Notes: generated from the letters alone by a model not told the origin. A DNA stretch of 64,000 nucleotides from an uncultured Nitrospiraceae bacterium (GCA_964393845.1 CAYMUX010000003.1:48-64047); one strand, 5' to 3'; positions 1 through 55,918 are shown, numbered from the stretch's first letter. A program made the numbers and translations.

Positions 1-2754
1 AGCACGGGGCAATCAACAACGAGCGGAAACTCAGCAGTGCCGACCTATGCAAGTCCTATCTGGGATACTCCGGCAAGCGCTGTCTGCGGAACATGTCATA
101 AGGTGACAGAGGTCTCGGGATTAACCTCCGGCAGTCATGCAGCGCATCTCGGTACAACAGGGGTAAACGGCTGCGGGGACTGTCATACAGGAGCTGCAAA
201 CGATGCATCATCATATAATTCAGCAAACCATGTGAATGCTTCAATAAATGTTTCAAATACATATACGGCAGGCGGGGCGCCCGGAAACGGATACGGCACA
301 TGTTCAACCGCCTCCTGTCATGACAACGGGACAGGCAGTCTCGCGGTCACACCGGCATGGGGTTCTTCACCGGCAAACTGTTCAGAATGTCACGCTGCAG
401 TGCCTGGCACGGGCAGTCACCAGAAGCATGTAGTAACAACGCAATACAGCAAGGCGTTATGCGGCAATTGTCATGATGGAGCAGTACAGGGGACAACAGC
501 GTCGGCGCAGCATCTTGATACAAATGTAGACGTATATGATGTAACAGCAGGCGACCTTGGATATCCGCAGGATAAAGCCAAGGGCTCTGCTTACACATCA
601 TGTACAACAGCATATTGCCACAGCACGGGACAATCCACAACAAACGGAAATTCAGCAACGCCGGCTTATGCATCGCCGACATGGGGCAATGCGTCAAGCG
701 CAGCATGCGGAACATGTCATAAAGTAACCGAGGCATCAGGACTGACATCCGGCAGCCATGCAGCGCATCTTGGGGCAACCGGAGTCAACGGCTGCGGCGA
801 TTGTCATACCGGAGCAGCGAATGACGCTTCATCATATAACTCATCAAACCACGTGAACGCTTCAATAAATGTTTCAAATTCCTATACTGCAGGCGGGACG
901 CCGGGCAACGGATACGGTACTTGTTCCGCAGCATCATGTCATGATGATGGAACGGGCAGTCTGAGCGTAACTCCTGAATGGGGGACAAGCGTAACGGATT
1001 GTACAGAATGCCACGCGGAGATACCTGCCACAGGCAGCCACCAGAAACACGTGGTGACTACAAGCTACAATAAAGCCGTATGCGGAGACTGTCATGACAA
1101 TGCAGTACAGGGCGCCACAACGCCGGCACAGCATCTTGACGGGAACCTTGATGTATACGATACAGCAGCCGGAGACCTCGGATATCCGCAGAATGTGGCA
1201 AAGGGCGGAGCGCCTTATGACACCTGTTCAACAGCATACTGTCATAGCACGGGACAATCAACAACAAACGGCAATTCATCAACGCCTACATACGCGACAG
1301 TAACATGGGGCGGTTCGGCTGCATGCGGTACATGTCATAAAGTGACTGAAACATCGGGATTAACCTCCGGCAGTCATGCAGCGCATCTTGGAACAATGGG
1401 TGTAAACGGCTGCGGAGACTGCCACACAGGGGCTGCAAATGATGCTTCATCATATAATTCATCAAACCACGTGAACGCTTCAATAAATGTTTCAAATTCC
1501 TATACTGCAGGCGGGACGCCGGGCAACGGATACGGTACTTGTTCTGCAGCATCATGTCATGGAGCTGGAGCGCCACAATGGGGTGGAACATTGACATCAT
1601 GCGGAGACTGTCATCTTGGAACGGGCGATGTGGATGATTTTACCTTTAGCAATGGAACTCTCGCTATAATAGACAACGCACAATGGAGTTGGTCCGGTCA
1701 TGGTAAGACAACAAGCATTTATGATGTCTCGGGTAATTCTGCAGCAAACCTGCCCGGCGCTGCTAATGGCGGCGACCCATGCCGGTATTGTCATAGCTCC
1801 CCGGTAACTCATAATACAGTTACTAATCCATTCCGTCTGGCAAATAATAATGCCTTTGGAAACGGATGGAATGATACTTGTCTTGTTTGCCACAAAACAG
1901 GCTCAACAGGTTATGACCCTGATAGTGCTGGTGTTATGACGAGCAAAAATGCAGCAAAGAAGATAGACAAATATCATTATGGAGCAAAACACGGCGTTTC
2001 AAATGACGGCGGCTCACTCTGCTGGGATTGCCATGACCCGCATGGGGACAGGACATCAGGCTCAGGCAATATCTTTATGACTCACTCAAACGTTACAAAA
2101 GACAAGACCGATGTGTATGGAACCCCTGCTTCAACAGGTTCTCCTGCATTTACCGCAAACAGCACAGGCACAGATTATGCCAAATCTTCAGCACCGTTTA
2201 ATGGTGTATGTAATGTCTGTCATACTACAACAGCTCACTATACTTCAACATCAGGTGATGGACATAACAGCAGTTCAAAATGTGTGCAATGCCATACACA
2301 TAGCGGTGACACCACGGTTGACGGCGAGGCATTTAAAATAGGCAGATGTGACTCCTGTCATGGATATCCGCCTGCGATCGGAGACGGAAAAACATACATG
2401 ACATCTGAGCAGGAGGGCAAGGGCGTTCATACGAAGCACCTGAACCATCTGCTTGCGCTTTCCGGCTACACGCTTGACCCTGCAACAGATCAGTTTGGAA
2501 ATAACGCAAAATTCAACGCAACATGCGGCGTCTGTCATACGAATAATTCTGCAAACCACTCGACTTCAGCGACACTGCCGAACACGCTGAGGACCATAAC
2601 AATTCCTGTGAGCTATCAGTTCGGGCCGAGCGCACCTGCGTACAACGGCGTGCAGGGTACGTCATCTACTGTAAATCCAAAGACCTGCTCGAACGTGAGC
2701 TGTCACTTCCAAGTGACTCCTTACTGGCAGAATCCTGCCACGGCGGGGAATTAG
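1..2754 (+). CDS. Giant secreted multiheme c-type cytochrome, 5'-partial (the reading frame is open from window position 1; the ORF track starts it at a GTG at 37). About 205-aa modules are tandemly repeated and at least 24 heme-binding motifs are visible.
   Basis: Translation shows repeated CGTCH, CGDCH, CSECH, CGNCH, CRYCH, CLVCH, CWDCH, CNVCH, CVQCH, CDSCH and CGVCH motifs, plus CX4CH variants (CSTASCH, CTTAYCH, CSNVSCH) as seen in cytochrome c3. Bases 1-36 translate in frame to STGQSTTSGNSAVPT, which matches the internal repeat, so the gene continues upstream of the window. Confidence 0.85.
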   Translation, partial: STGQSTTSGNSAVPTYASPIWDTPASAVCGTCHKVTEVSGLTSGSHAAHLGTTGVNGCGDCHTGAANDASSYNSANHVNASINVSNTYTAGGAPGNGYGTCSTASCHDNGTGSLAVTPAWGSSPANCSECHAAVPGTGSHQKHVVTTQYSKALCGNCHDGAVQGTTASAQHLDTNVDVYDVTAGDLGYPQDKAKGSAYTSCTTAYCHSTGQSTTNGNSATPAYASPTWGNASSAACGTCHKVTEASGLTSGSHAAHLGATGVNGCGDCHTGAANDASSYNSSNHVNASINVSNSYTAGGTPGNGYGTCSAASCHDDGTGSLSVTPEWGTSVTDCTECHAEIPATGSHQKHVVTTSYNKAVCGDCHDNAVQGATTPAQHLDGNLDVYDTAAGDLGYPQNVAKGGAPYDTCSTAYCHSTGQSTTNGNSSTPTYATVTWGGSAACGTCHKVTETSGLTSGSHAAHLGTMGVNGCGDCHTGAANDASSYNSSNHVNASINVSNSYTAGGTPGNGYGTCSAASCHGAGAPQWGGTLTSCGDCHLGTGDVDDFTFSNGTLAIIDNAQWSWSGHGKTTSIYDVSGNSAANLPGAANGGDPCRYCHSSPVTHNTVTNPFRLANNNAFGNGWNDTCLVCHKTGSTGYDPDSAGVMTSKNAAKKIDKYHYGAKHGVSNDGGSLCWDCHDPHGDRTSGSGNIFMTHSNVTKDKTDVYGTPASTGSPAFTANSTGTDYAKSSAPFNGVCNVCHTTTAHYTSTSGDGHNSSSKCVQCHTHSGDTTVDGEAFKIGRCDSCHGYPPAIGDGKTYMTSEQEGKGVHTKHLNHLLALSGYTLDPATDQFGNNAKFNATCGVCHTNNSANHSTSATLPNTLRTITIPVSYQFGPSAPAYNGVQGTSSTVNPKTCSNVSCHFQVTPYWQNPATAGN
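95..1560 (+). repeat. Nucleotide-level tandem repeats of about 611-618 bp inside the cytochrome gene (two full copies and a partial third), each encoding a roughly 205-aa six-heme module.
   Basis: Near-identical strings tgcggaacatgtcataa(g/a)gt at about 95, 706 and 1324; the protein repeats TSGSHAAHLG...CGDCHTGAANDASSYNS...AYCHSTGQSTTNGNS. Confidence 0.8.
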
Positions 2755-8081: not shown

Positions 8082-9485
8082 ATGAACCAGGAACAAAAAA
8101 CACGTTTTGACAGACTGGTGAGTTTTCTCGGAAGCATGAGACTTTCCTTTGTCCTTATCGTCATACTCGGCCTGCTTGTTGCCCAGCGGGCTGTAATAGC
8201 GCAGAAATTCGTTTACCTTGAGGAAGTACCGTGGTTTTTACGGATTCTTGGTTCGCTCGGGATTCAATCGGCGGAGGACCTCTGGATACCCTTTCTTGCT
8301 GTGCTCGCTGTTTTTGTGCTGAACCTCGGGTTTTCAAGCATAAGGATGGCAAGGAGGATAAGAGCCAGAAAAGAGGGCATCAGGGGATATCGCACATATG
8401 AAGCATTACAGGCTTTTATAAACAATGCGGAGTTTTTCTGCCCCGAAGATTCGGAACCCCTGATTAGAAGGTTTTTCAAGAGAAAGGGCTTTTATATTCA
8501 GAGCGACAATCTCGGGAATGAGACACGCATTCATGCCGTGAAGCATAGGGCCGGTTACTGGGGGGTTTTTTCCTTTCATCTGACGTTTCTGATAATACTC
8601 ATGGGAGTTCTCCTCAGTGTCTTTACGCGATACGCCGGATATTTTGAAATTTCACCGGGAGAAAACTTTATTGAGAGGTATGAGAACTACAGGGAGGTTA
8701 CAGAAAAGCCGGCTCTGTTCAGCGGAAACAGCGGATTGAAAATAAGGCTTGAGGAAATTGACCTTTCATACTGGAGACAGGGTGAAGTAAAACAAAGGGC
8801 AAGCATTGTGAGCGTCTTTGATGCTGAAGGAAGGTTTATGGGTAAAAGACGGATAGAAGTGAACAACCCGGTAAAAATAGAGGGAATGAACATATACCAG
8901 GGCTCAAGGAACGGCTACATCACAGTTCTTGATATTACAGACTCTGCCAGCACAACAGCAGAGGGTACAGCGAGGTTTCAGCTCCCGAAAAAACCGGGTG
9001 AACAAATGAAGAGCGCCATAACACTGCCGGGTATCGGCATCTCACTTCTGTTGGAGCTCTTTACCGAAAAACTGGGCGAGATAGAGGGACTTGAACAACT
9101 GGGCGCTATGCATATGGCGACCCTGCTGAAGGTAACGAGCAAGGAGGACCTCCGCAGTAACTTCAGGGGAGTAGCATTTAAGGGCGGGAGTCTGTCTTTT
9201 GAAGGGATTACCTTGAGGTTTTTGAGCCTGAGGCCGTATACTTCTTTTGTGGTAATCAGGGACTATGGTGTTCCAGTTATTTTTTCAGGCTTTGTCGTCA
9301 TGCTTATCGGCCTTATCATCACGTTTTTCTGGGTGCCTGAAAACTATTGGGCAATAATCAGGAAAAGTGAAAGCGGAGAAGTGGTCATTATGGGAGCGAG
9401 CAGTGATAAATTCAGGGAATCCTTTAGGGAGCGCTTTCATGCTGAAATTGAGGAACTCAAGGCAGAGGTGAAGGCACATGGCTGA
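8082..9485 (+). CDS. ccsB: Cytochrome c biogenesis protein ResB/Ccs1 (system II, CcsB).
   Basis: 467 aa with an N-terminal TM segment, HxxxGYWG-like AGYWGVFSFHL segment, large soluble domain and a C-terminal TM segment; immediately upstream of ccsA. Confidence 0.8.
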   Translation: MNQEQKTRFDRLVSFLGSMRLSFVLIVILGLLVAQRAVIAQKFVYLEEVPWFLRILGSLGIQSAEDLWIPFLAVLAVFVLNLGFSSIRMARRIRARKEGIRGYRTYEALQAFINNAEFFCPEDSEPLIRRFFKRKGFYIQSDNLGNETRIHAVKHRAGYWGVFSFHLTFLIILMGVLLSVFTRYAGYFEISPGENFIERYENYREVTEKPALFSGNSGLKIRLEEIDLSYWRQGEVKQRASIVSVFDAEGRFMGKRRIEVNNPVKIEGMNIYQGSRNGYITVLDITDSASTTAEGTARFQLPKKPGEQMKSAITLPGIGISLLLELFTEKLGEIEGLEQLGAMHMATLLKVTSKEDLRSNFRGVAFKGGSLSFEGITLRFLSLRPYTSFVVIRDYGVPVIFSGFVVMLIGLIITFFWVPENYWAIIRKSESGEVVIMGASSDKFRESFRERFHAEIEELKAEVKAHG

Positions 9486-10299
9486 AATAATCCTTTTCTG
9501 GATTTCTGTCGGCGCTTATGTCTTCAGTGCAGTAGCGTATATTGCAGGTTTAACATTTAAAAAGGACGGTTTCAGGAAAGCAGGCGCTCTTTTGGCGGCT
9601 TGCGGACTTCTTTTTCATACAGTTGCAATTGTGTTAAGATGGCTGCACGCGGGGCACGGCCCTTACGTCAGCACCTTTGAGATCCTTTCATCAACAGCAT
9701 GGGTGTCTGTCCTGTTTTTTCTTCTTCTTCAGTGGAAGTTCAGGAACTTTGTAAACCTCGGAGCTGCTGTAATGCCGCTTTCTTTTATCATGATGGGTTT
9801 TGCATTCATGGGTTCACAAGAGGTAAGGGCGCTGCCTCCCACTCTGAGGAGTTCATGGCTTGTGGTTCACGTTATCTTTGCCAAGCTTACTATTTCCTCT
9901 CTCCTTATCGCTGTCGCAATGTCGGTATTCTATCTCATGAAAAAAGGCAGGGATACACACAGCGGTATACTGGCAAAGCTGCCTTCTCCGGCAATGCTGG
10001 ATGATTACAGCTACAGGCTCGTTGCCTTTGGCTTTATCACATTGACCATAATGATAATCACGGGCTCTATATGGGCAAACAACTCATGGGGCAGTTACTG
10101 GTCATGGGACACCACCCAGACATGGTCGCTTGTCCTCTGGCTGGTCTACGGTGTATACCTTCACGGCAGGATCACCTTCCGGTGGAATGGTATGGTCTCT
10201 GCATGGTATATAATCCTGGCATTTATCTTTTCAGTAGCGACATTTTTTATTATTCCGTATTTCATCAAGGACATACATTCAGCTTACATGACAGGTTAA
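9478..10299 (+). CDS. ccsA: Cytochrome c-type biogenesis protein CcsA/ResC (heme exporter/lyase subunit).
   Basis: Polytopic membrane protein with the WWD domain WANNSWGSYWSWDTTQTW and conserved His residues; 8-nt overlap with resB. Confidence 0.85.
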   Translation: MAEIILFWISVGAYVFSAVAYIAGLTFKKDGFRKAGALLAACGLLFHTVAIVLRWLHAGHGPYVSTFEILSSTAWVSVLFFLLLQWKFRNFVNLGAAVMPLSFIMMGFAFMGSQEVRALPPTLRSSWLVVHVIFAKLTISSLLIAVAMSVFYLMKKGRDTHSGILAKLPSPAMLDDYSYRLVAFGFITLTIMIITGSIWANNSWGSYWSWDTTQTWSLVLWLVYGVYLHGRITFRWNGMVSAWYIILAFIFSVATFFIIPYFIKDIHSAYMTG

Positions 10300-10304
10300 A
10301 GCAA

Positions 10305-10790
10305 ATGCACGGAATGAATATGATAAAACCGGTAATCCTTATTCTTATCATAAGTATCTCAGGATTTTATGGATGCAGAAAGGGAAGAGATGGCAGTGTG
10401 ATTCACATGAAGGAATTGATAAAACAGTATAATAATCTTCTTTCAGAGGCGTATATCACCATGGATTTGACAGAGCTGAATAAAATACTTACAGAAAATC
10501 ACGCTGTAAGGCTTGAAACCCGGCTGACGAATGTCAGGAAATCTCAAAGGCGGATGGAATCTGAATTGAAAAAGATAGAGTTTAAGGATATTGTATTCCC
10601 GGATGACAAATCAGTTATTGTTAGTACGAAAGAAGTGTGGGATATCCGCCATATTGATTTAAAAACAAAAAAAATGATCAAAGAGCATAAGGGCTATGTA
10701 TATGATCTTCGCTATGAACTCGCTAAAAAAGGGGATACATGGCTGATTGACAACGTGGTTGTCATTGATGAAAGGGAACCATTATTGTAG
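10305..10790 (+). CDS. Uncharacterized lipoprotein co-transcribed with ccsBA (paralog of 12986..13516).
   Basis: The start was refined to the ATG at 10305, 6 nt after the ccsA stop; signal peptide with a Cys (ISGFYGC). Shares GYIT...LKF.D.K...W.DLL.GDTWL.D..V motifs with the lipoprotein downstream of the second ccsA. Confidence 0.6.
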   Translation: MHGMNMIKPVILILIISISGFYGCRKGRDGSVIHMKELIKQYNNLLSEAYITMDLTELNKILTENHAVRLETRLTNVRKSQRRMESELKKIEFKDIVFPDDKSVIVSTKEVWDIRHIDLKTKKMIKEHKGYVYDLRYELAKKGDTWLIDNVVVIDEREPLL

Positions 10791-10850
10791 CTCCGACAAG
10801 GAAGTTTCTTGATGCACTTTGGAACGGTGAGTATCGGCAATTTCGTGAAA

Positions 10851-11198
10851 TCAGTTCCCAGTCATGGCTTTTGCCGCATTGAAATTCGGCTCTAAAACAA
10901 GGTCTGCTGTCTTATCCTGATAACCTGACCGGTATCCTTTAACAAAAGCCTCTCTCATATCAGCATTTACTCCGAAGAAATCAAGACCTGTTTTGCTCGC
11001 AAGCACTTTTACAAATGCATTGTCTATATCCCCCGGTTTAAGTCCGTTTGCTCTGTGTTTTTCACCCCATAATTCACCGTCCTTCATAAAGTCTGTTGCG
11101 GCTTTTGCCGGATGGATGGTTGCACATCCAACGGCAAAACATAATAGGGAAAATAATACAACCATCACCCGGGCAGTATAAGCATTTAGTTTTTGCAT
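10851..11198 (-). CDS. Small secreted or lipoprotein of unknown function.
   Basis: 115 aa; N-terminal signal peptide MVVLFSLLCFAVGCATIHPAKA. Confidence 0.5.
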   Translation of the reverse strand: MQKLNAYTARVMVVLFSLLCFAVGCATIHPAKAATDFMKDGELWGEKHRANGLKPGDIDNAFVKVLASKTGLDFFGVNADMREAFVKGYRSGYQDKTADLVLEPNFNAAKAMTGN

Positions 11199-11497
11199 TG
11201 TTCTTTCTATCCTTCCTTTAAAGCAGAATTACATCTGTGCATATGGTGTTAATTAATGGTAAAATGACACGAAAGTGACTTACGCTGATTATAATGATAA
11301 CAGCAAGTCACTAGGACTGCAAGTCTCCATTGATGTTGCTAATAAAAAGGCAATAAATCTATCGAGGTCCAACCTCCATAATTTTTCAGTGTGTTATCTT
11401 TTTTTTGACCCTATGCAATTTGTGGCATAGGAATTACGTCATAATTAAAATAAGTAAAAATAGTATAATTAAATAAGGTCGGAAATAGGCTGTAATC

Positions 11498-12964
11498 ATG
11501 AAAAAAATAAAAAGAATACTCCTTATAACCCCTCCATATCATTCCGGAGTAGTTGAGTCGGCAGGGGTGTGGCTGAACGTTGCATTTGTGTATATAGCCG
11601 GAAGCCTGCGGGCCGCCGGATACGAGCCTGTCATATACGATGCTATGAGCTACTGGGACGGATATGGCGACATAGAGAAAAGGATAAGGGATGAGAGGCC
11701 TGATGTTGTAGCTGTCACGGCATTTACAGCCGGGATAGTGGATGCATTAAAGGTACTGAAACTCGCTAAAGATATTAACGCTGAGATTGTAACGGTCATA
11801 GGGAATGTCCATCCCACATTCTGCTTTGAGGAGATACTCAGGGAACATCATGCGTATATGGATTACATTGTACGCGGCGAAGGCGAGGAGACACTGGTAG
11901 AGCTTCTTGACTGCATTAATTCAGGGGGGAATATTGATAAGGTCAGGTCAATATCTTTTTATAAAGAAGGCAATCTCATTGTAACACCCTCAAGACCTGC
12001 AATAAATGATTTAGACAGTCTGCCGACGGCATGGGACCTGATAGACTGGCCCATCTATACATATAAGCCGATGGAAGGTTCAATACTGGCGATAGTAAGC
12101 TCCTCACGTGGATGCAACCAGCAGTGCAGTTTCTGCTCTCAGCAGCTTTTCTGGGAAAGGAAGTGGAGGGGCCGGAGCGCGGAGAACTTTGTTGCCGAGC
12201 TTGAATACCTGAGGGACACCTATGGCGTAAACGTAGTCATGCTGTCCGATGAAACGCCGACATTAAACAGGGAACGGTGGGAGAATATCCTGGACCTGCT
12301 GATAGAGAGGGATGTCGGTACAAAGCTGCTGATGGAGACAAGGGTTGACGATATAATCAGGGACGAAGACATCATGTGGAAATACAAAAAGGCCCTGATT
12401 GACCATGTCTATGTGGGTGTTGAGGCAACGACACAGGAGACGCTGGACATATTCAAGAAAGACATAAAAGTGGAGCAGTCCAAGAAGGCGCTTGATCTTT
12501 TAAACGCGCAGGACATTGTAACGGAGACGTCTTTTGTGCTGGGAATGCCTGATGACACAAAAGAGAGCATGGAGAAGACCATTCAGCTTGCGAGGTATTA
12601 CAATCCGGACCTTGCGTTTTTCCTTGCTATAGCGCCGTGGCCGTATTCGGAACTGTATCCGTATTTAAAGGACCATGTAGAGATAAAGGACTACAGCAAG
12701 TACAACCTTGTGGAGCCTGTGGTAAAACCAAAGGGGATGACGCTAAAAGAGGTGTCTGAGATACTGGGCAGGGCCTCGAGGGAATTCTATATGTATAAGA
12801 TAAACAACCTTGAATTGTTAACAGACAGGAAGAAAGAATTCATGATTAAGGTTGTCCATATAATAGCCACCAGTTCATATCTCGCGGAGACTATGAAAGG
12901 CACGAGCATGCCGGAAGACGTAAAAAAGCTGCTTGAAAAAATAAAAATGGATGCAATAGCCTAA
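11498..12964 (+). CDS. B12-binding domain radical SAM protein.
   Basis: N-terminal Rossmann-like B12-binding region followed by the CNQQCSFCS (CX3CX2C) radical SAM cluster motif. Confidence 0.75.
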   Translation: MKKIKRILLITPPYHSGVVESAGVWLNVAFVYIAGSLRAAGYEPVIYDAMSYWDGYGDIEKRIRDERPDVVAVTAFTAGIVDALKVLKLAKDINAEIVTVIGNVHPTFCFEEILREHHAYMDYIVRGEGEETLVELLDCINSGGNIDKVRSISFYKEGNLIVTPSRPAINDLDSLPTAWDLIDWPIYTYKPMEGSILAIVSSSRGCNQQCSFCSQQLFWERKWRGRSAENFVAELEYLRDTYGVNVVMLSDETPTLNRERWENILDLLIERDVGTKLLMETRVDDIIRDEDIMWKYKKALIDHVYVGVEATTQETLDIFKKDIKVEQSKKALDLLNAQDIVTETSFVLGMPDDTKESMEKTIQLARYYNPDLAFFLAIAPWPYSELYPYLKDHVEIKDYSKYNLVEPVVKPKGMTLKEVSEILGRASREFYMYKINNLELLTDRKKEFMIKVVHIIATSSYLAETMKGTSMPEDVKKLLEKIKMDAIA

Positions 12965-12985
12965 ACTGTCCCTTATCAATTTTCA

Positions 12986-13516
12986 TTAAGAAAGCGGCTT
13001 GTAACCTTCGGGGTTCTTTTCCTTTGTCTGCTTTACATCTATATCATCAACAAGCCATTTGCCGGACAGCTTTATCAGACGGTAGGTAAGCTTATAATCT
13101 ACAGAGTTTTCATATACCTGTTTGCCTGAATCCGTATTTATGTATTTATAGTCCCACTTTTCCTCTGTCCCGGCCTCAGCATTGTCCGGCGAAAGAATTT
13201 TTACATCCGTGAATTTCAGTTCATTCAGTTTCATATCCATCTTTACCTTGCCCTCTCCCAAAGCCGACATGTGGTAATAAGCCTTATTGGCACGCTTCTC
13301 TGTCGCCGCCTCAAGAAGAAGACTCATGTTTTGTGTAATATAGCCTTTTGCAAGCAATGAATCATAAAGGATTACAGTGTTTTTAATCCTTGTTTCTTCA
13401 TCAAACGCGCCTGTTTCTTTGGGCTTCTCCGAAGACGTGCCGACCGTTTTTTTGTCTTGTTCACAGGCTGTCACAGACAAGACAGCAATTAAAATAATCA
13501 CCAGCATTCTGATCAT
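12986..13516 (-). CDS. Uncharacterized lipoprotein, paralog of 10305..10790, terminal gene of the second ccs operon.
   Basis: Signal peptide MIRMLVIILIAVLSVTAC. Sequence similarity to the lipoprotein downstream of the first ccsA. Confidence 0.6.
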   Translation of the reverse strand: MIRMLVIILIAVLSVTACEQDKKTVGTSSEKPKETGAFDEETRIKNTVILYDSLLAKGYITQNMSLLLEAATEKRANKAYYHMSALGEGKVKMDMKLNELKFTDVKILSPDNAEAGTEEKWDYKYINTDSGKQVYENSVDYKLTYRLIKLSGKWLVDDIDVKQTKEKNPEGYKPLS

Positions 13517-13540
13517 TTAAAAACTCCATTCTCCTTTATT

Positions 13541-13885
13541 TTAATGAAAGGCCATTGTATACTGCCAGTAAGTTCCGCTGCCGAAAATTACAAGAAGTAA
13601 GATATGCTTTATTATAAGCATCTTTCTTCTCGTCCGCTCTGCATCCGCTCCGTACACGTCCCCTACATAGGCATATGTGAAGGTCCTTCCGGCGCCTGCA
13701 AGAAACACTATCCCTATACAGATAAGGCCGATATAAAAAAATTCCTTCATAAGTCCGCTCAGTACTATCTTCAGGCTGACCTCGGGGACCCTGTCAAGCC
13801 AGTAAACCGCCAGAACAGTCGCCGCCCATATACCGGCGGCAAAGTCATGAATAAAACCGATTATGATTGTCAGCGCCCTTTTCAT
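13541..13885 (-). CDS. Small (115 aa) three-TM membrane protein translationally coupled to ccsA.
   Basis: The start was refined to the internal ATG at 13885-13883, which forms an ATGA overlap with the ccsA stop (13884-13882). The longer ORF 13541..14059 would overlap ccsA by 178 nt. Confidence 0.5.
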   Translation of the reverse strand: MKRALTIIIGFIHDFAAGIWAATVLAVYWLDRVPEVSLKIVLSGLMKEFFYIGLICIGIVFLAGAGRTFTYAYVGDVYGADAERTRRKMLIIKHILLLVIFGSGTYWQYTMAFH

Positions 13886-14712
13886 GATCTGAAATACTCC
13901 GAGTGAACGGATGACTCGATCAGGGGCGTAAAGAACAGCGCTATAATTGAGAGGACAAAACATACCATGAAGAAATAAGAGGCCTTCTCTCCCTTTAATC
14001 CGAAGAACCTTCTCAGGTGAAGATAGATGCCGAAGAAAATCCATGTTATCAAAGACCATGTCTCAATCGGGTCCCAGCCCCAGTATCTTCCCCACGATTC
14101 ATAGGCCCAGATTGAACCCGCAAGCATGGCAATGGCCCAGAAGGTGAAGCCGAATCCCGCAAAGCGGTATGCGTACATATCGATAATATCAAGTTCCGGG
14201 AGTTTCCGGACCCATATAATCTGCGTCCTGTTTTTAAAGATATAAAATATTGAAAAAGCGAGCGCAATGAGTAACGAACCCAGGGCGATCTTATAAAAAC
14301 TCACATGCAGGACGAGCCATATGCTCCTTAACGATGGAGGCAGCTTTGTAACTTCAGGATTAAAGAAGATGCCTATAGCTATCAGCAGGAACACCGACGG
14401 GAATACGATGATGCTCGCAGGTCTTATCTTCGGGAAGAGCTTTGAGAAAATGAGAAAGAGGAAAAGGGCCATCCAAGCATTGGACGACATGACCTCATAC
14501 CTTGCCATATAAGGGCCGTGTCCTGCTGCATTCCATCGGTAGAGGATAGCTACACCGTGCACCAGCAGGCCTGCAATCGCAATATAATAGCTCCTTTTAT
14601 ATGCCCTTTCGTTTTCAAATATCAGTCCATAGGCATTCAGCACAGTTGCAATTACATAGATAATTACAGCGGCCCAGTGAGCGCCGGTATCAATGATCAA
14701 AGGACTGGTCAT
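13882..14712 (-). CDS. ccsA: CcsA/ResC paralog (cytochrome c assembly protein, second copy).
   Basis: WWD motif WAYESWGRYWGWDPIETW; topology parallels 9478..10299. Confidence 0.85.
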   Translation of the reverse strand: MTSPLIIDTGAHWAAVIIYVIATVLNAYGLIFENERAYKRSYYIAIAGLLVHGVAILYRWNAAGHGPYMARYEVMSSNAWMALFLFLIFSKLFPKIRPASIIVFPSVFLLIAIGIFFNPEVTKLPPSLRSIWLVLHVSFYKIALGSLLIALAFSIFYIFKNRTQIIWVRKLPELDIIDMYAYRFAGFGFTFWAIAMLAGSIWAYESWGRYWGWDPIETWSLITWIFFGIYLHLRRFFGLKGEKASYFFMVCFVLSIIALFFTPLIESSVHSEYFRS

Positions 14713-16096
14713 CAGCTTCTCCTTCCCGCAAATATCCCGGTAATTTTTTTGAACTCATCTTCGTAGAGACTCTTAAACTTCGCGGACTTCCATGTTACAT
14801 CGAATTTGTCGCCTTCTTTTTTTGCGTGTATCTCTCTCGGCGGCATAAAGTATGTCAGCGCGCCTCCGGTAATTATAATGAAAAACCCTGCAAAGACACC
14901 AGACATGCCGATGCTCCTTGTGAATATCAGGCCCGTCCACTTTGCAACGTGAACAAGCTCTGCAGTATATGGACCAAAGGGTTTCCTTTCGCCAATCTTT
15001 AAAGATACCTCCGCATAGATCTTTTCATTCTCAACAATATCCATCTTTAAGCTTCCGCCTTCCCCGTTATTCTGAGTTATACCACCTATGGACCGGTCTG
15101 TCTGAACGAGCCTCATGACCAGCAGAGGGTCTTTGCTTTCAATGGATTTCTTTTCGGCGTCAGCATAATATTTGGCTTTCAGCAGATACGGGATGTCTTC
15201 CATCATGAAGTTGCCGTAACTCGCCTTATCCCTTTTTAAGGGATGCTCTATCTGGAATATCTTATTGAATTCCTTCCCCTCCGTATCAGTAAGCGATACA
15301 TAGAAGGCCTCGCCAAAGCTTCGGCCCTGATAGATGCGGAGCCCCCTGTCATTTACATTCAGGTTGATCCCCACGGTATGCCGTGTCTCTTTTCCATCCG
15401 CGCCTGTAAAGCTGAACACGGTTGTCTGGTACTTGACCTCGTCTGTTTCCCAGAATTCAATATTGGACTGTTCAAGCCTCACTGCCTCAGGCAGAATAAA
15501 CCCGCCTCCTAAAATGCCCGTATCTTCTAAAAGCCATTGACCGCCCTGAAAAAAGGCGTCTCCTTCAGCCAGGTGTATCAGGCCTCTCTTTTCAGTAGAG
15601 ACAATCAGGAGTGACGCTGAAATCATGACAGCCATACCCGCATGAAGAAGCGCATTGCCCCAGTATCCCCATCGGTTCCTGATAAATTCAGATTTGATTC
15701 ATCATAATAAGAGAGCCGATATCCCGCCTTCTTAATTACGCTGATGACGTCTTCCCTGGAAGCAGATATTTTAACACCTTCTGAATCCGGGGTTATCCCC
15801 TGACCGGATATCTTTTTGTAAGAAAATTTGATTTGTTCAATTGTTGAGAGTACGAGTGTGATAAGAAAAATCAGGAGCAGGACAGCGAACCAGGGAGTTG
15901 TATATACATGGTCTAGCCCGAGCCTGCTGCCCCAGAGGGACCAGAAGGGATACGTCTCATGCCATTTCTGAAACTGTTCCTGTGTAGTCGAAAACCTCTG
16001 CGGGAAGATATACCCGGCAACAACGGCTTTAAGAATGAGCAGTATCAGTGTGAGGACAGTTTTTCTTGAAAGCAGGAACTGCTTAATCGTTTTCAT
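14712..16096 (-). pseudogene. ccsB: ResB/Ccs1 paralog split into two frames (ORFs 15623..16096 and 14712..15635) by a single-base frameshift near 15640-15700; either a pseudogene or a sequencing error.
   Basis: The N-terminal ORF (TM segment + loop) ends at ...GAMRFFMRVWLS. The +1 frame reads IKSEFIRNRWGYWGNALLH and continues into the C-terminal ORF; the conserved GYWG segment lies in the shifted frame. The combined length of about 465 aa matches the first copy. Confidence 0.65.
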
Positions 16097-54442: not shown

Positions 54443-55918
54443 ATGAAAATTGCTTTTATTATTCCCAAGAACAGTTCTGATACTGGAAAAAGCTTTTACG
54501 ATTATAAATTCTTCTCTGAGTTTTTACTCTCAAAAAAATATTTTTCCTACCTCCTGGCGATTCCCACGTTAGTCTCTCTTACTCCGCCGGAACATGAGAT
54601 AAGGGTATTTGATGAGAACATTGAAGATATCGACTATAACTGGGGTGCGGATATAGCCGGCATCAGCGTAAGGACCATGTTTGCGAAAAGGGCCTACAAG
54701 ATATCGGAATCGTTCCGGCAAAGAGGCGTAAAAACCGTTTTGGGAGGCATACATCCTTCAATGTGCAGTGAAGAGGCCCTTCAGCACTGTGATTCCATAG
54801 TAGTCGGAGAAGCTGAGGAAGTATGGCAAAATCTCTTACTTGATGCAGGTAATGGCGGTCTTAAAAAGATTTATAAAGCGGAGAAGAAGGCTGATTTAAC
54901 GGCTTTCCCCATTGCAGGAAGGGCATCTCTATCGAAAGACAGATACTTTTCAGATATTGTTCAAACAACAAAAGGCTGTCCATTTCATTGTGAATTTTGT
55001 TCCGTTCATGCATTTGACGGACAGAAGATCAGGAACAGGACAATTGAACATGTATTGAATGAAATAAGAGACGTTGTGGGCACAAGCGCCACATACAAGA
55101 AGAGGTCCATATTCTTTGCTGACGACAATATAATAGCAAACAGGAAATTTGCCAGAGAGTTATTCCTGGCATTAAAGGATTATAACCTCAACTGGTCATG
55201 TCAGGCGTCAATTAATATATCAAAGGATGATGAACTTCTCAGGTTAATGAAAGACAGCGGGTGCGGAGCTATTTTAATAGGGCTTGAGTCAATATCCAGG
55301 GAAAATCTGTCCAGCATGGACAAGGGGATCAATCTTAAACATGACTATCATGATGCAATTAAAAAAATCCAGTCGCACGGTATAATGGTGCACGGATCAT
55401 TTATTCTGGGATATGATTTTGACACGCAGTCTTCATTTGATGAACTGACAGCGTTTATCAAAGATACTCACCTGCTTATGCCTCTAATCAACATCCTGAC
55501 ACCGTTCCCGGGTACGAAGCTTTTTAAACGTCTCGAAGAAGAGGGCCGGATACTCCATAAAGACTGGGACAAATACGACGCAAAAACTGTTGTTTTTTTC
55601 CCTCATCTTATGACCCCTGAAGAACTGCTGGAAGGGCACAAGCGGGTGATCAGGGAAATTTATTCGTTTGATTCCATTTATAAGAAACTTACATATTATT
55701 GGGACACCGACTTCTGGAAGCATTCAAACGAGGTTGATCCCATTAAATTAAAATACCGGCTGCTGTTTGCTTTCAGGCTTTGTACTCTGCTTTTTTCAAG
55801 CAACTTCAAAAGATCAAAGTTTATTCTCAGGATACTGCCGAAAATATTCGGCAAACGCATAAGAATTTCGACTATACTTTCACTAATGGCTTACAACGAT
55901 TATGCCTATTCATCTTGA
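54443..55918 (+). CDS. B12-binding domain radical SAM protein (second copy in the window).
   Basis: N-terminal B12-binding-like region; cluster motif CPFHCEFCS. Confidence 0.75.
   Translation: MKIAFIIPKNSSDTGKSFYDYKFFSEFLLSKKYFSYLLAIPTLVSLTPPEHEIRVFDENIEDIDYNWGADIAGISVRTMFAKRAYKISESFRQRGVKTVLGGIHPSMCSEEALQHCDSIVVGEAEEVWQNLLLDAGNGGLKKIYKAEKKADLTAFPIAGRASLSKDRYFSDIVQTTKGCPFHCEFCSVHAFDGQKIRNRTIEHVLNEIRDVVGTSATYKKRSIFFADDNIIANRKFARELFLALKDYNLNWSCQASINISKDDELLRLMKDSGCGAILIGLESISRENLSSMDKGINLKHDYHDAIKKIQSHGIMVHGSFILGYDFDTQSSFDELTAFIKDTHLLMPLINILTPFPGTKLFKRLEEEGRILHKDWDKYDAKTVVFFPHLMTPEELLEGHKRVIREIYSFDSIYKKLTYYWDTDFWKHSNEVDPIKLKYRLLFAFRLCTLLFSSNFKRSKFILRILPKIFGKRIRISTILSLMAYNDYAYSS

Follow-up and report, generated by a model that had tools for sequence, protein, structure and literature searches.

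The 64,000-nucleotide stretch of DNA from an uncultured Nitrospiraceae bacterium analysed here (GCA_964393845.1 CAYMUX010000003.1:48-64047), referred to below as the window, encodes two copies of the ResB-CcsA pair (CcsBA), the haem exporter and lyase of System II cytochrome c maturation, and each copy is accompanied by a gene for a small lipoprotein. Judging from the predicted structures, these two lipoproteins belong to a family of membrane-tethered periplasmic NTF2-like proteins that occupies a conserved gene neighbourhood. By gene content, the core of this neighbourhood comprises a family of large multihaem cytochromes, an apparently dedicated ResB-CcsA pair and the lipoprotein, and a small membrane protein and a BchE-like radical S-adenosylmethionine (radical-SAM) enzyme are often found along with them. 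The lipoprotein family is probably a helper in the making or the docking of giant multihaem cytochromes. More specifically, gene context and fold lead us to favour, tentatively, a lipoprotein that would act as a client-specific adaptor or holdase for this one cytochrome family and would work together with the dedicated CcsBA.

The lipoprotein family and its predicted fold

A BLASTP alignment of lipoproteins 1 and 2 gives 29% identity over 119 residues (E 2e-14), which bears out the homology proposed in a first-pass annotation of this DNA, and by this comparison the two proteins are true paralogues. Each of them contains a single cysteine, located in a lipobox of the PROSITE PS51257 type (..SGFYGC in lipoprotein 1 and ..LSVTAC in lipoprotein 2), and lipidation is predicted for both. 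Among the 120 family members that were aligned, a lipobox is present in 96, and the mature part is free of cysteine in 86 of these 96. With no CxxC motif in the two lipoproteins, a thiol-redox role was rejected, and the absence of a thioredoxin fold agrees with the annotation that they are neither ResA nor CcdA.

The AlphaFold2 models of both lipoproteins (pLDDT 93.6 for lipoprotein 1 and 89.8 for lipoprotein 2) are NTF2-like and consist of one long helix, two short helices and four long strands, in which the alpha+beta cone of the NTF2-like superfamily, with its three helices on a curved antiparallel sheet, can be recognized. The top Foldseek matches of lipoprotein 1 are the intermembrane-space domains of PARC6 and ARC6 (E 5e-7). 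The Pfam family ARC6-like_IMS (PF13355) is matched by lipoprotein 1 at 21.3 bits, under the gathering score of 22.8, and is not matched by lipoprotein 2, while 15 of the 120 family members match it at E <= 0.01, the best of them at 1e-6. The Pfam family NTF2_YvbJ also falls just under its cut-off with lipoprotein 1. Neither lipoprotein has a match above cut-off in Pfam or NCBIfam, the latter giving no match at all, in keeping with the earlier statement that the lipoprotein is no known Ccs component, and a profile search against PDB sequences returned nothing significant, the best match being the MlaC-like Ttg2D (E 0.15).

Two residues, Tyr42 and Glu110 in the numbering of lipoprotein 1, are invariant over the 120 members, and Trp112, Tyr137, Trp146, Tyr133, Thr108 and Leu46 are conserved at 93-99%. 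When placed on the model by secondary-structure position only, the conserved residues map to helix 1 and to strands 2-4 of the cone, a distribution that is consistent with a conserved pocket. Three proteins of 312-333 residues (P0010, P0012 and P0013) are natural tandem two-domain lipoproteins, in which a divergent N-terminal domain precedes a C-terminal domain of the lipoprotein-2 type, and they hint at domains acting as dimers. They were also considered as fusions of lipoprotein 1 with lipoprotein 2, and this was rejected, since the assignment to the lipoprotein-2 type is clear for the C-terminal domain only. Another protein, P0014 (220 residues), begins like CcsA2 and continues into a lipoprotein domain; this fusion is probably a deletion or a misassembly and gives a further, indirect sign of adjacency.

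An exhaustive profile search for the family returned 683 representative clusters at E <= 1e-3, 315 at E <= 1e-10 and 58 at E <= 1e-30, nearly all of them with proteins of 140-220 residues. The family had appeared to be very rare in word-indexed searches with single sequences, which gave only 2 and 7 relatives, an impression that the profile search overturned: the family is unannotated, having no Pfam or NCBIfam model, and not rare. No description of the lipoprotein or of its gene cluster was found in the searchable full-text literature.

Linkage to cytochrome c synthase genes and to one family of multihaem cytochromes

Gene context was compared at 65 loci (55 after removal of redundancy), which derive from metagenomes, Nitrospirota and Desulfobacterota. 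They were gathered by look-ups of individual homologues, by one genome scan with a narrow pattern, which contributed one locus, and by one metagenome scan with a single motif, which samples only the subtype carrying the HMAALGE motif. All loci were searched with the proteins of the window, and many of the contigs are short. Among the named hosts are a Nitrospirae metagenome-assembled genome (MAG), Geomonas sp. Red276 (L005) and a Desulfobulbaceae MAG, and the closest relatives of the window's own host that could be placed carry a Nitrospirae label.

At 33 of the 55 non-redundant loci, resB or ccsA is found within the captured DNA, at 31 of these no more than 400 nt from the lipoprotein gene, and most of the loci without them are too short to judge. 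The ccs genes are present at 17 of the 21 loci having at least 1.5 kb on both sides, referred to below as well covered, and at 13 of the 15 loci having at least 2.5 kb on both sides. The conserved linkage that had been proposed from the two copies in the window thus extends well beyond this genome. The annotation had named, as an outcome that would speak against its idea, a family found broadly and unlinked to ccs genes; the family is moderately broad, yet overwhelmingly ccs-linked among its sampled members.

The lipoprotein gene takes three different positions relative to the ccs genes, as it can follow ccsA, lie between resB and ccsA (L031, L038) or precede resB (L030, L037, L045, L053, L056). 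Among the loci with called genes, at least six independent ones show a 4-nt overlap of its start with the stop of ccsA. The CcsA proteins of the other loci share 51-79% identity with CcsA2 and 34-47% with CcsA1, and CcsA2 is, by these identities, the type that adjoins the lipoprotein in most other loci, which makes set 2 of the window the widely conserved module type. Genes of the lipoprotein-2 type follow CcsA2-type CcsA, and genes of the lipoprotein-1 type, seen at L063 and L064, follow a CcsA of the CcsA1 type (64% and 72% identity to CcsA1, 39% to CcsA2). The lipoprotein subtype therefore tracks the CcsA subtype, and the whole ResB-CcsA-lipoprotein unit appears to have been duplicated and to have diverged together.

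The idea of an accessory factor for CcsBA, which the annotation had put forward, is supported by this linkage and is at the same time incomplete, as it overlooked an equally tight tie to one cytochrome family that also holds at loci without ccs genes. Of the 21 well-covered loci, 19 encode a multihaem cytochrome, a frequency no lower than that of the ccs genes. The C-terminal 250-450 residues of cytochrome B, encoded directly before set 1 in the window, are homologous to the cytochrome that adjoins the module in more than 20 loci. A motif CxxCH-[ILVM]-x-[ILVM]-PHG lies 56-111 residues before the C-terminus in 20 of 21 neighbouring cytochromes (family loci L001, L003, L005-L008, L016, L021, L028, L029, L033, L039, L045, L048, L049, L051, L052, L056, L058 and L059) and in cytochrome B, where it reads CQYCHIPIPHG and lies 56 residues before the end. 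With 20 of 21 cytochromes sharing this C-terminal CxxCH-x3-PHG domain, the accompanying CcsBA is encoded beside one cytochrome family, as would be expected of a client-dedicated synthase.

The extreme C-termini of these cytochromes fall into recognizable types. Thirteen of the 21 neighbouring cytochromes have a terminal Trp (typically ..E-S/A-W), and an irregular C-x(n)-C-x(m)-H stretch precedes it, whereas 7 of the 21 end in ..NCSxxxxCH; tails of this sort may serve as cofactor sites of a non-canonical kind or as tags for recognition. In a neighbour-joining tree of the lipoproteins, the clades that directly follow cytochromes with the CH tail are mostly without ccs genes in the captured DNA, while cytochromes with the Trp tail are accompanied by ccs genes. 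At the four well-covered loci without ccs genes (L020, L023, L029 and L058) and at several shorter ones, the lipoprotein gene stands directly after a large multihaem cytochrome gene, beside the small membrane protein and radical-SAM genes, or both.

A connection of the module with CX4CH haem sites, suggested in the annotation, did not hold up. Where a multihaem cytochrome adjoins the module, CX4CH is entirely missing at about half of the loci, for example at L001 (35 CxxCH and 0 CX4CH) and L008 (51 CxxCH and 0 CX4CH), and a specificity of the module for this motif was rejected on these grounds.

Gene layout of the window and other conserved neighbours

The features of the two sets and of the genes around them are listed in the table. 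The genes resB1, ccsA1 and that of lipoprotein 1, as well as ccsA2 and the genes of the small membrane protein and of lipoprotein 2, lie where the first-pass annotation had placed them, and two details of the layout had to be amended. The gap between ccsA1 and the lipoprotein 1 gene is 5 nt and not 6 nt, and the two ccs operons do not flank the cytochromes, since both sets are located to the right of the cytochrome genes and it is the radical-SAM gene that sits between them. Set 1 (ResB1, CcsA1 and lipoprotein 1) is intact and stands directly 3' of cytochrome B, and set 2, on the minus strand, converges on the radical-SAM gene from the right in the order ResB2, CcsA2, membrane protein and lipoprotein 2.

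Features of the window, together with methyltransferase and LuxE-like genes of related loci
Feature	Position	Strand	Remarks
Multihaem cytochrome A	1..2754	+	Truncated by the window start, open reading frame (ORF) listed from 37; 18 CxxCH and 6 CxxxxCH; Pfam Cytochrome_C7 and GSu_C4xC__C2xCH
Giant multihaem cytochrome B, 1742 aa	2766..7994	+	12 CxxCH and 1 CxxxxCH, all within the C-terminal third
ResB1 (CcsB), 467 aa	8082..9485	+	Intact; PF05140, E 1.6e-34
CcsA1, 273 aa	9478..10299	+	PF01578, E 5.8e-38; Trp-rich WWD segment with flanking His residues
Lipoprotein 1, 161 aa	10305..10790	+	Signal peptide with lipobox (..FYGC), then predicted NTF2-like domain
Lipoprotein-like ORF, 115 aa	10851..11198	-	Between lipoprotein 1 and the radical-SAM gene
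BchE-like B12-binding radical-SAM enzyme, 488 aa	11498..12964	+	PF02310 and PF04055
Lipoprotein 2, 176 aa	12986..13516	-	Lipobox (..VTAC), then predicted NTF2-like domain; Y-x-HMAALGE motif of the widely conserved subtype
Small membrane protein, 108 aa	13541..13867	-	Conserved pairs: His-Asp (first helix) and Lys-His (last helix)
CcsA2, 276 aa	13882..14712	-	Intact; PF01578, E 1.1e-37
ResB2	14712..16096	-	Disrupted; ORFs 15623..16096 (157 aa) and 14712..15635 (307 aa)
Methyltransferase/LuxE-like genes of related loci	L006 8534..10312; L010 7040..7627; L011 2721..4590; L033 713..1945; L043 284..1513

Both CcsA proteins carry the Trp-rich WWD segment, the conserved periplasmic His residues that flank it and, in addition, a membrane His, with the segments ..HAGHGPY.., ..WLVVHV.. 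and ..WGSYWSWDTTQTWS..YLH in the translation of CcsA1 and ..AAGHGPY.., ..WLVLHV.. and ..WGRYWGWDPIETWS..YLH in that of CcsA2. They score 131.1 and 130.1 bits, respectively, against the gathering cut-off of 29.9 for PF01578, and 185.5 and 167.8 bits with the NCBIfam equivalog TIGR03144, not reaching its cut-off of 187.6; they are slightly divergent from the curated CcsB/CcsA equivalog. The identity between the two copies is 39.5% for CcsA and only about 21% for ResB. The full-length ResB1 matches PF05140 at 120 bits and has a membrane His segment (..GYWGVFSFHLTF..).

The second resB-ccsA pair was correctly assigned to the opposite strand, and its CcsA2 is intact, but resB2 is split by a 1-nt deletion. 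Frame analysis places NRWGYWGNALLHAG, the conserved segment of ResB2 with the membrane His, in a third frame outside both ORFs. A related locus (L065), with 97.3% DNA identity over 3.2 kb, encodes an intact ResB of 462 residues, and the sole gap in its alignment with the window is one G absent from the window between 15688 and 15687. ResB is intact in all other relatives, too. Because an identical 157-residue ResB2 product is on record from a separate Logan contig, the lesion is probably present in the reads and is not just an assembly slip, and the deletion is probably real in the sequenced population.

The annotation had recognized the lipoprotein with CcsBA as a conserved neighbourhood and had overlooked two further members of it, the BchE-like enzyme and the small membrane protein. 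The 108-residue membrane protein recurs in 20 loci at 27-64% identity, where the radical-SAM gene usually follows it directly, and the His-Asp pair in its first helix and the Lys-His pair in its last helix are invariant in the alignment. Its only Pfam match is a weak one to CopD (E 0.015), and the two-His pattern suggests the binding of haem or of a metal.

Orthologues of the radical-SAM enzyme, with 46-82% identity, are encoded a few kb from the lipoprotein gene in 18 non-redundant loci. By far the best NCBIfam match of the enzyme is TIGR02026 (BchE), at 400.4 bits, under the cut-off of 481.35. BchE is the anaerobic Mg-protoporphyrin cyclase and acts on a tetrapyrrole. The BchE-like enzyme sits in an apparently non-phototrophic context, and a tetrapyrrole substrate is the obvious guess. 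A second, more distant B12/radical-SAM protein (54443..55918, plus strand) shares 25% identity with the first and has HpnJ and BchE matches far under the cut-off.

Additional genes are found in some of the clusters. Some clusters of the Desulfobulbaceae type also hold an ICMT/PEMT-like membrane carboxyl methyltransferase and a LuxE-like acyl-protein synthetase, one or both of which are located between the lipoprotein and radical-SAM genes. As pure speculation, this placement recalls the chemistry of BchM followed by BchE on a porphyrin propionate. In Geomonas sp. Red276 (L005, 8001..14140), two copies of the lipoprotein are present, genes for a GT39 (PMT) and a GT2 glycosyltransferase are interleaved with resB and ccsA, and the module is downstream of two large cytochromes and a TPR protein.

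Across the full 64 kb, the two lipoproteins are the only family members and cytochromes A and B the only multihaem ORFs, and there is no additional ccs gene. Neither Pfam nor NCBIfam has a match for the 115-residue lipoprotein-like ORF, none of the 65 loci carries a relative of it, and it is probably outside the module. Elsewhere, the window holds ordinary chromosomal genes, among them those for LigA, HtpG and the PrsK/PrsR regulators. A Rho-like ORF of 320 residues (22429..23391, plus strand) is without the N-terminal RNA-binding domain; it was considered as another frameshift, which would have been a sign of poor assembly, and this was rejected, as the upstream frames hold no N-terminal domain and the ORF resembles a short-form Rho. 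A scan for promoters and terminators gave counts near the shuffled expectation (within about 1.5 standard deviations) and was not used.

Possible roles of the lipoprotein and comparison with known systems

If the lipoprotein serves as an adaptor or holdase, its lipid anchor would hold the NTF2 cone at the membrane beside CcsBA, and the pocket (Tyr42, Glu110, Trp112, Tyr133, Tyr137 and Trp146 in lipoprotein 1) would grip a segment of the client cytochrome, most plausibly its C-terminal domain or tail, so that a very long apocytochrome would stay at its own synthase while haem is being attached or assembly is under way. This role is favoured because the closest structural relatives hold the tails of partner proteins and the adjacent cytochromes share a conserved C-terminal domain and tail. 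Some clusters, moreover, carry extra genes of a maturation type, namely a CycH/CcmI-like TPR protein and a TPR-thioredoxin fusion at L007 (9637..11354) and a SurA-like peptidyl-prolyl isomerase (PPIase) at L001 (8805..9767).

Several points weigh against an adaptor or holdase. The arguments for it come from gene context and structural analogy, from which a physical interaction, the binding of a peptide and a role in maturation may be deduced. In System II, CcsBA alone suffices for ordinary CxxCH sites. Cytochrome B is without the terminal Trp and ends in ..HGSWVIPGCT, a pocket with invariant Tyr and Glu is typical also of NTF2-like enzymes and small-molecule binders, and gene context was sampled for the closer part of the family (the HMAALGE subtype and a few others), a minority of the 683 clusters. 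The well-covered loci L020, L023, L029 and L058 carry the lipoprotein without ccs genes. Furthermore, two entire clades directly follow a cytochrome with no ccs gene in the captured DNA, so that the lipoprotein could have the mature cytochrome, rather than the synthase, as its partner.

From this last point arises the main alternative, according to which the lipoprotein would be an anchor or docking partner of the mature giant cytochrome, whose tail would sit in the NTF2 pocket, and would take no part in attaching haem; the adjacency of the ccs genes would reflect only that they serve the same cytochrome. This is possible, though we regard it as unlikely. It would account for the loci at which the lipoprotein gene comes directly after the cytochrome gene with no ccs gene nearby (L021, L023, L027, L028, L029, L048, L051, L052 and L058), for the count of multihaem cytochromes compared with that of ccs genes at well-covered loci (19 vs 17 of 21) and for closest structural analogues that are tail-binding scaffolds, neither enzymes nor chaperones. 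However, the lipoprotein gene is often embedded in the ccs operon, between resB and ccsA or with the 4-nt overlap with ccsA, in many loci resB and ccsA intervene between the lipoprotein and cytochrome genes, and the lipoprotein subtype follows the CcsA subtype.

The other conserved neighbours lend themselves to a weaker and rather improbable explanation, in which the lipoprotein would partner with the BchE-like enzyme and the two-His membrane protein and, in the periplasm, bind or act on a modified tetrapyrrole or another cofactor that the dedicated CcsBA exports and attaches. The order of lipoprotein, small membrane protein and radical-SAM gene is kept without ccs genes at L020 and L023, and at L015 the lipoprotein gene is beside the radical-SAM gene; the best family match of the latter acts on a tetrapyrrole, the carboxyl methyltransferase and LuxE-like enzyme are added in several loci, and the invariant Tyr/Glu/Trp pocket resembles those of NTF2-like enzymes and ligand binders. 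On the other hand, the captured DNA of roughly one third of the well-covered loci (L005, L039, L055, L057 and L058) holds no radical-SAM gene, the BchE match stays under the family cut-off (400 vs 481 bits), the top structural matches are non-enzymatic and, to our knowledge, no modified haem c is known for these organisms. Finally, the linkage might have no functional meaning, the lipoprotein gene being carried along as a passenger when mobile cytochrome islands spread. Across phyla, the similarity of CcsA2-type genes is unusually high (51-79% identity), as it could be if a whole island had spread horizontally, but a passenger is very improbable given that the linkage outlasts repeated rearrangement of gene order and at least 70% divergence of the lipoprotein sequence, that the pocket residues are invariant over 120 diverse members and that overlaps of the translational-coupling type with ccsA occur.

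A bolder scheme, which we consider unlikely, would combine the adaptor role with the chemistry of the neighbours. The whole neighbourhood would be one dedicated pathway made up of ResB, CcsA, the lipoprotein, the two-His membrane protein and the BchE-like enzyme, sometimes with the carboxyl methyltransferase and the LuxE-like enzyme; either its cytoplasmic enzymes would modify a tetrapyrrole or an unusual cofactor site would be installed at the odd C-x(n)-C-x(m)-H...Trp-COOH tail, which the lipoprotein would then recognize and present to the specialised CcsBA. If true, it would add a third kind to the client-specific variants of System II, one that has a new accessory subunit and may involve a new modification of haem.

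System II, made up of CcsBA and thiol-redox helpers, counts as the minimal cytochrome c synthase, and the question here is how bacteria load dozens of haems onto proteins of 1000-1800 residues. An accessory lipoprotein linked to its client and conserved across several lineages of bacteria would add a concrete new component to this system, and the BchE-like enzyme and the two-His membrane protein point to further chemistry around these cytochromes. Genetic work is perhaps feasible, as a cultured Geomonas has the lipoprotein, and there is possible relevance for the heterologous production of large cytochromes for bioelectrochemistry.

The closest structural likeness is to ARC6 and PARC6, which are plastid and cyanobacterial division proteins and grip the C-terminal tails of PDV2 and PDV1. 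Their NTF2-like cone is extracytoplasmic and membrane-tethered, with a pocket that takes the C-terminal tail of the partner (PMC9945983). The lipoprotein family shares with them a weak sequence signal, with both window proteins below the gathering score of PF13355, and a predicted membrane-tethered NTF2-like cone; it differs in being tethered by a lipid anchor, in contrast to the transmembrane helix of a large division protein, and in a context of cytochrome maturation and not of cell division. The candidate ligand of the pocket, the conserved cytochrome tail, was identified from sequence only. The C-terminal domain of Tim44 and the NTF2-like domains of the VirB8/TraM type have structural scores below those of ARC6 and PARC6, belong to other machines and have no context in common with the family.

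Among the maturation systems, ResA/CcsX and CcdA/DsbD are often encoded with resB and ccsA, and ResA can be a lipoprotein, but the hallmark of these proteins is either a CxxC within a thioredoxin fold or a CcdA core in the membrane, in contrast to the lipoproteins described here, which have the lipid-site cysteine only and are NTF2-like. The proposed role is more analogous to that of CcmI/CycH and CcmH of System I, as a membrane-anchored periplasmic holder of the apocytochrome, in particular of its C-terminal region, at the haem lyase. The folds differ, however, being TPR or a three-helix bundle in System I and NTF2-like here in System II, there is no sequence relationship, and some clusters (L007) hold a CycH-like TPR protein besides the lipoprotein.

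Dedicated isoforms of System II are found in Wolinella succinogenes, in which NrfI serves the CX2CK site of NrfA and CcsA1 the CX15CH site of MccA. We know of no lipoprotein partner described for these systems; the Wolinella mcc cluster has a PPIase, as has the related cluster at L001. The client of the module described here differs in being marked by a conserved C-terminal domain and tail and not by a proven non-canonical haem motif, the CX4CH motif being inconsistent. What is common to both cases is the presence of extra CcsBA-type paralogues beside one particular multihaem cytochrome, an arrangement that suggests client-specific maturation.

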